The notes below the pieces were generated by a model. It did no database searches. It was not told the DNA's origin and saw only the letters and a list, made by a program, of their open reading frames with translations. A stretch of 35,577 nucleotides of DNA. It comes from a virus (taxonomy: Duplodnaviria; Heunggongvirae; Uroviricota; Caudoviricetes). Shown piece after piece: positions 9,310 through 15,355 of this stretch; the first letter of the stretch is position 1, and each line of letters opens with the position of its first letter. The translations under genes were made by a program, and so were the position numbers. The stretch is from the IMG/VR virus record IMGVR_UViG_2778261575_000001; one strand, given 5' to 3'.

Positions 9310-9642
9310 ATGAACCCTTATATTTATCTTGGTGGTGCAATACTTGCAGAGGTCATTGGTACAACCTTAATGAAGTTTTCAGAAGGTTTTACACGGTTAT
9401 GGCCATCTGTTGGTACAATTATTTGTTATTGTGCATCATTCTGGTTATTAGCTCAGACGCTGGCTTATATACCTACAGGGATTGCTTATGCTATCTGGTC
9501 AGGAGTCGGTATTGTCCTGATTAGCTTACTATCATGGGGATTTTTCGGCCAACGGTTGGACCTGCCAGCCATTATAGGCATGATGTTGATTTGTGCCGGT
9601 GTGTTGGTTATTAATTTATTGTCACGAAGCACACCACATTAA
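9310..9642 (+). CDS. emrE: small multidrug resistance efflux transporter EmrE
   Basis: 110 aa from the ATG at 9310 (MNPYIYLGGAILAEVIGTTLMKFSEGFTRLWPSVGTII...) matches E. coli EmrE, a known DLP12 prophage gene; RBS AGGAAAG upstream. Confidence 0.95.
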   Translation: MNPYIYLGGAILAEVIGTTLMKFSEGFTRLWPSVGTIICYCASFWLLAQTLAYIPTGIAYAIWSGVGIVLISLLSWGFFGQRLDLPAIIGMMLICAGVLVINLLSRSTPH

Positions 9643-9897
9643 AAATAATTTATTTTTAAACGACTAAAATATTGAGGTTCGTATATTTGTATGGGCCTCG
9701 TTTTATGCTTTTTGTTAATGTCTTTAGTTTTTATTCATTCTTTTGATCTTTCAAGATTATGGTGTAAGAAAATTGCAATACGATTATTGTTGTATATTCA
9801 AGATAATGTGACCTTAATTGTCTTTTTAAATAAAAATTAAACAAAAATCATATCTCACCACTAAGGTTTATAAAAGCATACTTTAGCAGGTGTCACC

Positions 9898-11424: not shown

Positions 11425-11748
11425 GTAATAATCACTTTTTCAACCGTGCTATGGTATGAAAGTAAAGTAACTAATATGATATTAACTATCTTGAACGAAG
11501 CGCCCTGAGCTATAGTTTTACTATAGGCACTGTCACTGGATGTTGGCATTCTTGCTCTAGTAGCTCAACAATACCCAATCACAAAACAATTCACTGATAA
11601 CAAACTTTGTGCACGTGCTTGGTTATGGCGAACAGGTGATGTTAACCTCTTGCCAGAATGCCACTCCACTTCATTAAGTATCTGAGCACCGAGAGGCTGG
11701 TCACGCCCCCATTAAAAATAATTTCTTTTGAATCGAGTGAAATAGGTT

Positions 11749-11775
11749 AGCCCGCATAAGTGCGGGCTGCTTTTT
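11749..11775. terminator. hairpin terminator between the ybcK block and the esterase gene, possibly bidirectional
   Basis: Stem AGCCCGCA(11749-11756)/TGCGGGCT(11761-11768), loop TAAG, then TTTTT (11771-11775) on the plus strand; overlaps the stop of the minus-strand esterase gene. Confidence 0.5.
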
Positions 11776-12817
11776 ACAGGTCAGCGTTTGTTTTTTGTTG
11801 TTGGGTAGCGGTTTTTATGGGGGTTCCCAGGTTTTTAGTAAACCACTCAACAACTCTGTTTATAATAATTGGCTGATACCATGTATTATCGCCATGCTCG
11901 GCCCCTTCTACCAGCACGTACTCAGCGTTATCACCGTTCTTCTTCAACATCCTGAATAGTTTGGCGCTTTGCTCAGGTGAAACCAGAGTGTCTTTGCTAC
12001 CATGCATAATAAGAAATGGGGGTTTTACTCCTTTCATATGTCCGATTGGACTGGCGTTTAGCGCTTTTTCTTTTGACGCTGTGATGGGGGCTCCCGCAAA
12101 ATTTCTGAATGCAGGGCCATTGATCATTAAGGCTTCGGTTACGGCAGGAGAGCGATGAACCTCCTGCACTGATTCAGGGAACCCCTCGCCAATATTCAAC
12201 AAGTCAGAAATCCCATAAAGTGTGGCAACTGCCTGAACATCTGAGGATTGCTGAAGAAAGTCACCTTTATCAAAGGTTTTGTCACCATTTGTAGTTCCCA
12301 TCATCTGGGCAAGCCATCCACCGGCAGAGTCACCCAGAACTCCGATTCTTTGAGGATCAATCCCATAATTGCTGGCATGCTCTCTCAGGTAACGTATTGC
12401 AGCTTTTCCATCCTCAACTGGTGCTGGAAATGTATCAGGAATTGTTCTGTATTCTACAGCGGCCACAACAAAACCAGCTTCTGCCAGAGCCATTCTCATT
12501 TCAATAAATTTGTCATGTTCAGAAGACATGAATCCGCCGCCGGGATAATAAATAATGGCTGGTTTTAAATCATTTGTTCGCGGGACAAGAACTGACATGT
12601 GAAGCTGTCTGACAGAACGAGTTCCTTTTATCTGGGAATAAACAACATCACCAATGAGATCGACCTGGTTTCTGGTCGGTGAAACACTAATGATATCTGC
12701 ACCCGGGGTGTAACCAGGAAGATTAGTCTGGACAGGTGTTGCACAACTCCCGACCGACATGGCCATTGACATACCATACAATAGTGTTGCAGATGATAAT
12801 ATCTTGTTAATTTTCAT
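11774..12817 (-). CDS. secreted or lipoprotein alpha/beta-hydrolase (family IV esterase/lipase-like)
   Basis: 347-aa ORF with an N-terminal signal peptide and possible lipobox (MSVGSC), an HGGG-type oxyanion motif (YYPGGGF), a GDSAGG nucleophile elbow and a C-terminal His (GAEHGD). Confidence 0.7.
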   Translation of the reverse strand: MKINKILSSATLLYGMSMAMSVGSCATPVQTNLPGYTPGADIISVSPTRNQVDLIGDVVYSQIKGTRSVRQLHMSVLVPRTNDLKPAIIYYPGGGFMSSEHDKFIEMRMALAEAGFVVAAVEYRTIPDTFPAPVEDGKAAIRYLREHASNYGIDPQRIGVLGDSAGGWLAQMMGTTNGDKTFDKGDFLQQSSDVQAVATLYGISDLLNIGEGFPESVQEVHRSPAVTEALMINGPAFRNFAGAPITASKEKALNASPIGHMKGVKPPFLIMHGSKDTLVSPEQSAKLFRMLKKNGDNAEYVLVEGAEHGDNTWYQPIIINRVVEWFTKNLGTPIKTATQQQKTNADL

Positions 12818-13205
12818 GTTTTACATGCCTTGACTTATCGGATGAAATTCTCTTACTGAATTTAACGGCAGTTTAATAGCCGTACAACTCGTGGTAGCCA
12901 GGGAAATATCCCAGTCGTGGTTAAGGTTGTACTTGACGGCTATTATTTCAACAATGCTTAAAGTGAGAGCTTAAGGTTATGCGTATGTTTTACAGTCCGA
13001 GTAGATTCTGACCAATAGCTTCTTTGTATAATTCTGTCAGAAATAAATCTTGGCTTGCATGAAGTTTGAGACCTTATCTTGTTTGATTATGAATAATCAA
13101 TTCGCCATAATTGTATCACCGGAGCCTGAACAACTCCGGTGACTTCTGCGCTAAACGGGGACGTTTATGCGCACACACAATCCAAACTCTCTTCTCCCTT
13201 CACAG

Positions 13206-14532: not shown

Positions 14533-14669
14533 TGTTTGAGTCTTATATGGCAGAGCGTCTTCGCCGCCGCTGGGTGCGCCTGCGCTTATATCGTTTTCCT
14601 GGTTCTGTTTTGACCGATTACCGGATACTGAAGAATTACGCCAAAACACTGAAAGGAGCTGCCGCATGA
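14529..14669 (+). CDS. ylcG: YlcG-like small protein
   Basis: 46-aa ORF translated by hand ([46 protein letters not shown]), overlapping the rusA stop and the next gene's ATG. Confidence 0.45.
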
Positions 14670-15355
14670 ATACCCAATATTTACAGTATGTCCGCGAGCA
14701 ACTCATTGTGGCTACCGCTGATTTGAGCGGAGCAACGAAAGGACAGCTTGAAGCCTGGCTGGAGCATGCACAATTTGATACTGGTACATACAAACGAAAG
14801 AAGCCGCGCATTCTGGATGAGGTAACTGGCAGGATGATTACGCTGGATAATCCGCCGATTTCCGGTAAGCAGTCGTACGCAAAAGGTTCATCCATTGCAC
14901 TGGTCAGCCAGGTTGAGTTCTCAACCTCGTCATGGCGCCGCGCGGTTCTGTCTCTCGAAGAACATCAGAAAGCGTGGTTGCTGTGGAGTTACAGCGAAAG
15001 TGTTCGCTGGGAACATCAGGTCACCATAACGCAGTGGGCATGGAGCGAGTTTAAGACTCTGTTGGGTACCAGGAAAATTGCAGGTAAAACACTGGAACGT
15101 TTGAAGAAGTTGATCTGGCTGGCGGCACAGGATGTGAAGAACGAGCTGGCAGGGCGTAAGACCTATGAATACCAGGAGCTGGCATCACTGGTGGGAGTGA
15201 CATCAAAAAACTGGTCTGAGACATTTACTGAACGCTGGGTTGCAATGAAGCACATTTTTCTACAGCTTGATAGCCAAGCTTTATTGCTTTTAACGAAAAC
15301 ACGTTCAAAACAAAAGACCATATTTTCACAGCAAGATATTGCAAAACTGGATTAA
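14666..15355 (+). CDS. putative late-gene regulator (Q-position protein)
   Basis: 229-aa ORF immediately upstream of a terminator-containing leader and the lysis cassette; assigned by position only. Confidence 0.45.
   Translation: MNTQYLQYVREQLIVATADLSGATKGQLEAWLEHAQFDTGTYKRKKPRILDEVTGRMITLDNPPISGKQSYAKGSSIALVSQVEFSTSSWRRAVLSLEEHQKAWLLWSYSESVRWEHQVTITQWAWSEFKTLLGTRKIAGKTLERLKKLIWLAAQDVKNELAGRKTYEYQELASLVGVTSKNWSETFTERWVAMKHIFLQLDSQALLLLTKTRSKQKTIFSQQDIAKLD

Follow-up and report, generated by a model that had tools for sequence, protein, structure and literature searches.

The enzyme on which the BD-FAE family was founded (PDB: 6TKX/6XYC) acts as both a feruloyl and an acetyl xylan esterase; it has a Ser-Asp-His triad, and its active site is shallow and open (PMC8165983). 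The same family profile matches the product of the gene considered here, a 347 amino acid (aa) open reading frame (ORF) on the minus strand of IMGVR_UViG_2778261575_000001, a 35,577-nucleotide IMG/VR record of a virus of the Caudoviricetes (the whole stretch is referred to as the window). The gene belongs to a lambda-like E. coli prophage and is probably a functional moron that encodes an exported hydroxycinnamoyl/acetyl esterase acting on diet-derived plant esters. BD-FAE and the carbohydrate esterase (CE) domain of Bacteroides eggerthii GH43-CE (6MLY) have the α/β-hydrolase fold, the Ser-Asp-His triad and PF20434 in common with the window protein; however, BD-FAE is only ~25% identical to it in a structural alignment and resides in xylan polysaccharide utilization loci (PULs) of Bacteroidetes, whereas the window gene travels alone as a passenger of a prophage. 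The closest solved structure is Lip_vut4 from a goat rumen metagenome (6NKF). Its triad is aligned with that of the window protein, but the identity is ~31% and the structure was deposited as a lipase.

The Dickeya proteins FaeD and FaeT, formerly carbohydrate esterase family 10 (CE10) in CAZy, belong to the same family as the window protein. In the Dickeya literature they are the CE10 feruloyl esterases of the genus, with FaeD as a substrate of the type II secretion system (T2SS). The two Dickeya aquatica proteins curated as 'Ferulate esterase' have in common with the window protein an N-terminal signal peptide, the triad and both sequence motifs, PGGGF and GDSAGG. In Dickeya, the genes are on the chromosome, stand beside LysR regulators, and encode signal peptides of the signal peptidase I (SPase I) type with export by the Out T2SS. 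In contrast, the window gene belongs to a phage, is not accompanied by a regulator and encodes a lipobox cysteine.

Precedent for esterase cargo in lambdoid E. coli prophages is provided by the NanS-p sialate O-acetylesterases of Shiga toxin (Stx) prophages (PMC10462455, PMC8065619). The NanS-p genes differ from the window esterase in gene and family and are found in the region flanking the stx operon (PMC10462455), whereas the window gene, which is expressed in the lysogen, occupies an opposite-strand position within the nin region. No sialate O-acetylesterase domain was identified among the Pfam matches of the window esterase, all of which are α/β-hydrolase families. The chromosomal acetyl esterase Aes of E. 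coli (4KRX), a member of the hormone-sensitive lipase (HSL) family, belongs to the same superfamily and presents a GDSAG elbow, but its match to the window protein is weak and N-terminal (E = 4.6e-9). Aes is cytoplasmic and has an HGG motif. In the prophage DLP12, the same slot between flanks that are 94–96% identical is occupied by ybcL-ybcM. These genes are unrelated to the esterase and are on the plus strand; YbcL is also exported (periplasmic) and YbcM is a putative DNA-binding transcriptional regulator according to the MG1655 annotation.

The esterase gene and the elements predicted within it are located as follows.

11774..12817, minus strand: esterase coding sequence, 347 aa with an ATG start (ORF list; Pfam, PHROG and PDB matches)
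12530..12544, minus strand: oxyanion-hole motif PGGGF, residues 92–96 (P92, G93, G94, G95 and F96 invariant in a 45-sequence alignment)
12317..12334, minus strand: nucleophile elbow GDSAGG, residues 162–167, with Ser164 (G162, D163, S164, G166 and G167 invariant; aligned with GDSSGG of 6nkf)
11990..11992, minus strand: codon of the predicted catalytic Asp276, within HGSKDTLVSP (D276 invariant; aligned with the Asp of 6nkf and 6mly)
11894..11896, minus strand: codon of the predicted catalytic His308, within GAEHGD (H308 invariant; in all 45 phage copies)
12743..12817, minus strand: putative signal peptide and lipobox, residues 1–25, VGS/C25 with Ala26 at +2 (pattern check)

The best Pfam match of the ORF product is BD-FAE (PF20434, E = 5.5e-45), which is aligned over profile positions 7–214 of 215 and scores 153.9 bits, above the curated gathering cut-off of 26.8 that defines membership. 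A second, weaker match is to Abhydrolase_3 (81.3 bits, cut-off 25). The product also matches PHROG 3341, named 'esterase', with E = 1.3e-129, and sequence matches in the PDB include 6nkf (E = 1e-37, residues 48–330), the BD-FAE structures 6tkx/6xyc (E = 2e-21) and 6mly. An AlphaFold2 (AF2) model that was built from the 45-sequence alignment had a mean predicted local distance difference test score (pLDDT) of 79 and a predicted template modelling score (pTM) of 0.82, with residues 1–27 of low confidence or disordered. A single-sequence AlphaFold model was discarded (pLDDT = 35). When the AF2 model was searched with Foldseek, the top matches were the same esterases as in the sequence search, with 6nkf, 6xyc, 6tkx and 6mly all at a probability of 1.00. 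By these profile and structure matches, the product is a BD-FAE/Abhydrolase_3 α/β-hydrolase. The initial annotation had described it as an esterase/lipase-like hydrolase; the α/β-hydrolase esterase stands, and the family is refined to BD-FAE and feruloyl-acetyl esterase-like in place of lipase.

The mature enzyme is predicted to be a Ser164-Asp276-His308 carboxylesterase of the BD-FAE family, a part of the former CE10 group. The three residues are invariant among 45 homologues and among 45/45 phage and prophage copies, and they align with the triads of 6nkf and 6mly. No residue of the triad is therefore missing, and the GDSAGG motif that had been noted earlier is present at residues 162–167. 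The HGGG-type motif that had been proposed with it was identified in part: there is an oxyanion motif of the GGGX type; however, the histidine is absent and the sequence reads YPGGGF (residues 91–96). Pro92, which takes the place of the HSL-family histidine, is invariant in the subfamily and the GGG is kept. With respect to the HSL family (lipolytic family IV, Abhydrolase_3), the GDSAG elbow and a profile match are present in the protein, but the HGG(G) motif is not, and scores against the NCBIfam HSL subfamily models are far below their cut-offs. Two further roles were considered and dropped. A scan with PADLOC matched 0 families at E <= 0.01, leaving a defence role without a match. A siderophore esterase of the Fes/IroE type was considered since the related prophage Perceval carries sitABCD, but no such family is among the Pfam matches.

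The gene is intact and widely distributed. About 12% of complete E. coli genomes (~670/5426) hold at least 80% of a 1840-bp stretch that runs from intergene to intergene, and ~640 records match this stretch at 99% identity or more. Many of the latter are identical, and they include SE15, many sequence type 131 (ST131) strains and other clinical, animal and water isolates. In these genomes, the gene is annotated as 'alpha/beta hydrolase' (WP_000700204.1). Eight phage records also contain the stretch, namely 4A7 (two records), Lambda_4C10, D2, 1W, 3W, PhiR47_2 and Perceval, with the annotations 'esterase' or 'alpha/beta hydrolase'. IMG/VR contains 43 full-length copies at 97–100% identity, and together with two reference loci these form an allele set (n = 45) of 24 DNA alleles and 18 protein variants. 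The gene is intact in 42/45 copies; the other three comprise one with a premature stop and two without the ATG. The mean ratio of nonsynonymous to synonymous substitution rates (dN/dS) is 0.19 among the phage and prophage copies, with dS up to 0.10, and 0.05–0.10 relative to three E. coli plasmid-type alleles. Thus, the ORF is a real gene under purifying selection, and the possibility that it is a pseudogene in its relatives, raised at the outset, is not borne out.

A database search returned 2587 relatives of the esterase. Further E. coli alleles are 74–80% identical to it. At 62–72% identity the relatives are from Dickeya, Pectobacterium, Pantoea, Kosakonia, Klebsiella, Kluyvera, Rhizobium, Sphingomonas 'Leaf' isolates and Zymomonas plasmids, and at 55–64% identity they are from gut taxa that belong to several phyla, namely Sutterella, Bacteroides, Prevotella, Akkermansia, Campylobacter and Helicobacter. 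Two paralogues of D. aquatica are curated as 'Ferulate esterase', one 66% (SLM61953) and the other 47% (SLM61950) identical to the window protein. The gene neighborhood offers a second lead to the substrate. In eight independent genome loci, a gene for a phenolic acid decarboxylase (PF05870, E = 2e-84) is directly upstream of the esterase on the same strand. These loci are from Serratia, Symbiopectobacterium (two), Mangrovibacter, Azospirillum (two), Pedobacter and Flavobacteriales, and so span Gammaproteobacteria, Alphaproteobacteria and Bacteroidota. The same pair, with a divergent LysR gene, is found on E. coli IncFII plasmid contigs and on a metagenome contig. Among 55 loci at 55% identity or more, phenolic acid decarboxylase is the only recurrent adjacent neighbor family. 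The pairing therefore points to hydroxycinnamoyl esters as the probable substrates. A literature search found no paper naming WP_000700204 and none describing an operon of the decarboxylase (pad) and esterase (est) genes; a paper on orf6/orf10 of phage phiv142-3 of avian pathogenic E. coli (APEC) was unrelated.

The esterase also recurs on contigs that resemble virulence plasmids. On the E. coli IncFII contigs (loci L090–L092), alleles that are 75–80% identical form LysR-pad-esterase modules beside a serine protease autotransporter of Enterobacteriaceae (SPATE), and another plasmid-type allele of E. coli (L088) adjoins perC and a SPATE.

The initial annotation had noted a signal peptide and a possible lipobox, and both are present by pattern; signal peptides are found in nearly all homologues. 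The amino terminus, MKINKILSSATLLYGMSMAMSVGS followed by C25, has K2 and K5 in the n-region and 19 uncharged residues (6–24). The lipobox test looked for [LVI][ASTVI][GAS]-C at residues 15–35 after a positive n-region and an uncharged h-region, and S-V-G-S-C25 fits this PROSITE PS51257-like pattern. Cys25 is kept in 45/45 phage and prophage copies. In 677/682 E. coli records, the 81 nucleotides (nt) that surround its codon do not differ from the window, and the cysteine also occurs in P0002, P0003, P0005 and P0175, which are E. coli alleles of the plasmid type. In contrast, the homologues of other genera at 62–72% identity have a signal peptide with a site of the Ala-X-Ala type and no cysteine. 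Alanine at +2 predicts sorting to the outer membrane by the Lol pathway. Since the E. coli alleles have a lipobox cysteine and Tyr25 is rare, lipidation and outer-membrane sorting are plausible in the E. coli clade, as judged from the pattern.

A natural variant with tyrosine in place of Cys25 (TGT to TAT, codon 12743–12745) is the representative of the database cluster, P0001. From this representative, the lipobox cysteine had appeared to be a rare variant, a view that was rejected when the 81-nt genome survey demonstrated that the Cys allele is the rule. The same toggle between cysteine and tyrosine occurs in the plasmid-type allele cluster (P0004 with Tyr, P0175 with Cys).

Evidence for transcription was drawn from supplementary tables S1 and S4 of Misson et al. 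(PMC9928086), a single RNA-seq data set from a single strain, the adherent-invasive E. coli LF82. The prophage Perceval of LF82 carries the stretch at 99.9% identity, and its esterase gene is LF82_159/PERCE_52 (PMC9928086). Expressed as log2(fpkm+5), where fpkm denotes fragments per kilobase per million mapped reads, the esterase was at 4.1–4.4 in overnight lysogeny broth (LB), 6.9–7.2 in medium at 1 h, 5.1 in medium at 6 h, 7.0–7.3 in macrophages at 1 h and 6.1–6.3 in macrophages at 6 h (PMC9928086). The flanking recombinase and NinB genes were at 2.3–3.2 in LB and in medium at 1 h, and at 2.7–3.1 in the comparison with the 1 h values of the esterase (PMC9928086). After 1 h, whether in medium or in macrophages, the esterase is ~40-fold over these silent flanking genes, and in macrophages at 6 h it exceeds LB by a log2 fold change of 2.26 (q = 2.7e-13; PMC9928086). 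The esterase is thus transcribed in the lysogen while its neighbors are silent, which supports an independently transcribed moron, as the initial annotation had proposed. For Perceval, a prophage of the window's type, increased expression in medium and in macrophages is recorded for emrE and bor as well (PMC9928086, table S1).

The gene is situated in a cassette of the lambdoid nin region with the following boundaries and flanking signals.

11464..13081, strand not assigned: cargo cassette of 1.6 kb in the place of DLP12 ybcL-ybcM, with ybcK on one side and the ylcH/ybcN promoter on the other (blastn against MG1655 DLP12)
11748..11769, strand not assigned: terminator-like hairpin that separates ybcK from the convergent esterase gene (terminator scan of the plus strand; RNA folds)
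12818..13081, minus strand: upstream non-coding part of the cassette, the presumed promoter region of the esterase (conserved with the gene; lysogen transcription)
13083..13111, plus strand: promoter-like site of the ylcH/ybcN (orf33/orf151) operon, TTGATT-17-CATAAT, the right bound of the slot

The esterase is the sole credible minus-strand gene between ~6300 and the right end of the window. All of its neighbors in the ORF list are on the plus strand (cII/O/P-like genes, ren, emrE, ybcK, ybcN, ninE, ybcO, rusA, Q, and lysis and morphogenesis genes), so that the ORF runs counter to the lambdoid early rightward operon, in agreement with the orientation first described. Homology to MG1655 DLP12 (94–96% identity by blastn) ends at 11463 and resumes at 13082, and the cassette is therefore defined as 11464–13081. 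In the DLP12 annotation, ybcL and ybcM fill this slot between ybcK and ylcH/ybcN, which confirms that the esterase stands in their place. The GC content of the cassette is 0.44–0.47 compared to 0.32–0.38 for ybcK and 0.50–0.52 for ybcN. An insertion between conserved neighbors with a distinct composition, as expected of a moron, is thus observed. The flanks of the cassette contain no remnants of the decarboxylase or LysR genes and no donor DNA, matching only other copies of the same prophage, and a scan of the window with Rfam gave no match.

The 264 bp upstream of the gene are 98–100% conserved along with it in 43/43 IMG/VR copies, whatever stands downstream. A comparison of the upstream regions of the phage allele and the plasmid allele P0003 revealed nothing in common beyond a 10-mer. 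On the right, the slot ends exactly at the -35 hexamer (TTGATT) of the orf33/ylcH promoter-like site (window 13082–13111), and the same ylcH/orf33 site is annotated as putative -35/-10 signals in the phage 82 record X92588. The position of this edge suggests that cargo is exchanged between a terminator and the orf33/ylcH promoter.

The initial annotation had assigned the gene a hairpin terminator of its own. A hairpin of 8 bp (11748–11769) does start 5 nt past the esterase stop, and its minus strand folds with -16.7 kcal/mol (z = -3.2). Folded as the plus strand, however, it reaches -22.1 kcal/mol, the T-run (CTTTTT) is on the plus strand, and in the terminator scan it counts as a terminator of the plus strand. 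On the strand of the esterase, the tail is only AACCUAUUU. Since the T-run faces the other strand, the hairpin looks like one that ybcK and the esterase, as convergent genes, have in common, and less like a textbook terminator of the esterase alone. The DNA that follows the stop exists in two forms, that of the window with emrE-ybcK, and a second with an unrelated hairpin and a convergent inverse autotransporter. Two unrelated hairpins in the same place in two prophage variants argue that a terminator is needed there.

Several other observations were made around the slot. In the second form (e.g. L109:6081-9632), found in 26/43 IMG/VR copies, emrE-ylcJ-ybcK are replaced by an inverse autotransporter of 1183 aa that is composed of IAT_beta and five Big_1/Invasin_D3 repeats, and the recombination junction is within the last ~15 codons of the esterase (residues 332–346 differ). 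A 38-nt stretch downstream of the esterase hairpin (~11707–11744) is 84% similar to ~9634–9671, just past the emrE stop; this repeat could be a shared terminator-like or recombination element. In the Q region (14666–15355), the SE15 and 4A7 relatives have quuD followed by a minus-strand porin gene resembling ompC/nmpC. The window has a 229-aa ORF that is directly followed by the lysis genes, with no porin moron.

The explanation we favor, and consider probable, is that of a moron for an exported hydroxycinnamoyl/acetyl esterase. On this view, a self-contained cassette of upstream region, gene and hairpin in a nin-region slot of a lambdoid prophage is transcribed on its own in the lysogen. The product would be exported with a Sec signal peptide and, for the E. 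coli alleles, probably be lipidated at Cys25 and sorted by Lol to the outer membrane by virtue of alanine at +2. Were the lipobox unused, signal peptidase I would release the enzyme into the periplasm. From homology and the conserved gene neighborhood, the most likely substrates would be plant-derived esters able to cross porins, namely small hydroxycinnamoyl esters (feruloyl, p-coumaroyl or caffeoyl) and/or acetyl esters; examples are feruloylated or acetylated oligosaccharides and esters of the chlorogenic type. Lysogens of gut E. coli may thereby gain access to, or tolerance of, diet-derived esters.

A number of points weigh against this explanation. The phage copy has neither the decarboxylase nor the LysR regulator, as only the esterase was kept. 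The link to Dickeya FaeD and FaeT draws on the curated D. aquatica names and on a 2011 study by Hassan and Hugouvieux-Cotte-Pattat, which is said to have assayed both enzymes. The deposited name of 6nkf is 'lipase', and NCBIfam gives no equivalog, every match being far under its cut-off. Catabolism of ferulate is not known from E. coli. The h-region of the signal peptide, which was judged by pattern, is only moderately hydrophobic. A promoter scan upstream of the esterase identified no convincing sigma-70 promoter; the candidates were weak sigma-70/extended -10 sites, for example TGaAATAAT ending at 12942. In overnight LB, the esterase of LF82 was only ~3-fold over background, and the authors, whose criterion for a moron was 5-fold above background in LB, did not list it as one (PMC9928086).

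The same fold could serve a generic short- or medium-chain carboxylesterase or lipase that acts on host or bacterial lipids as a virulence-type factor of extraintestinal or adherent-invasive E. coli. The name of 6nkf agrees with this, as do the thermophilic esterases and HSL-family enzymes among the other matches, but the BD-FAE score is far over those of lipase-type families. The gene is also upregulated in LF82 inside macrophages relative to LB; however, induction is equally strong in macrophage-free medium at 1 h. Also in favor of a virulence-type factor, related alleles are found beside a SPATE and perC on plasmid contigs, an inverse-autotransporter adhesin is present in a prophage variant, and many carriers are ST131 or B2 clinical isolates. 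Against this, the only conserved neighbor is a phenolic acid decarboxylase, and the homologues are concentrated in plant-associated and gut fiber-degrading bacteria. The BD-FAE active site, shallow and solvent-exposed, would moreover suit bulky substituted carbohydrates (PMC8165983). A lipid substrate appears unlikely on balance. Changes to the cell surface are a frequent effect of prophage cargo in this region, and an exported product that is possibly membrane-anchored, as its pattern indicates, might deacetylate the envelope polysaccharides of the cell itself (O-antigen, capsule, enterobacterial common antigen, or O-acetyl groups of peptidoglycan) to bring about seroconversion or superinfection exclusion. 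Acetyl esterase activity is also shown by BD-FAE members (PMC8165983). The close homologues, however, stand alone in non-phage contexts of many phyla, linked to phenolic acid decarboxylase and not to polysaccharide-synthesis loci. No PADLOC model was matched, and the gene occurs across the serotypes O25:H4, O150:H6, O170:H18, O7:H15 and O99:H6. The envelope O-acetyl esterases known so far are of the SGNH/GDSL families. Such a role is very improbable.

It is also conceivable that the gene is a neutral hitch-hiker, an intact gene of recent capture from a plasmid pad-est module, expressed at a low level and with no selected function. Its regulator and decarboxylase were left behind, expression in LB is low, and 3/45 copies have a stop codon or a lost start. 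Purifying selection makes such a passenger unlikely: dN/dS is 0.19 over 24 phage-borne alleles with dS up to 0.10, and the triad and lipobox are kept in every copy. In addition, the gene is found in ~12% of complete E. coli genomes, in two prophage backbones with the same upstream region, and its expression depends on conditions. We regard neutrality as improbable. The favored explanation of a plant-ester esterase may also be taken further. In the mobile-element alleles, a secreted plant-cell-wall feruloyl esterase would have been made into an outer-membrane lipoprotein by gain of the lipobox cysteine and freed of its decarboxylase and regulator. It would now be a colonisation factor of B2, ST131 and adherent-invasive lineages that is switched on upon entering host-like media or macrophages and acts at the surface of the cell on esters from the diet or the host. 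This extended version is speculative and, as a whole, decidedly unlikely.

That the gene encodes an esterase was already known from the annotation of genomes, phage records and PHROGs, and both the fold and the family are familiar. The present analysis adds the assignment to a FaeD/FaeT-like subfamily, the linkage to the decarboxylase, the gain of a lipobox in the mobile-element alleles of E. coli, the exact boundaries of the cassette and a rereading of RNA-seq data that shows independent expression in the lysogen. The finding is sound rather than surprising, that of an annotated esterase which is a well-supported but ordinary metabolic moron. If the substrate assignment is true, phages would have supplied about one in eight sequenced E. 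coli with an enzyme that releases hydroxycinnamic/acetic acid from dietary plant esters. Such a metabolic moron would have a conceptual counterpart in NanS-p of the Stx phages, yet be expressed during lysogeny, and a diet-linked trait would join what prophages contribute to ST131 and adherent-invasive lineages. The gene would also offer a simple case of a soluble secreted enzyme that has turned into a lipoprotein after horizontal transfer.

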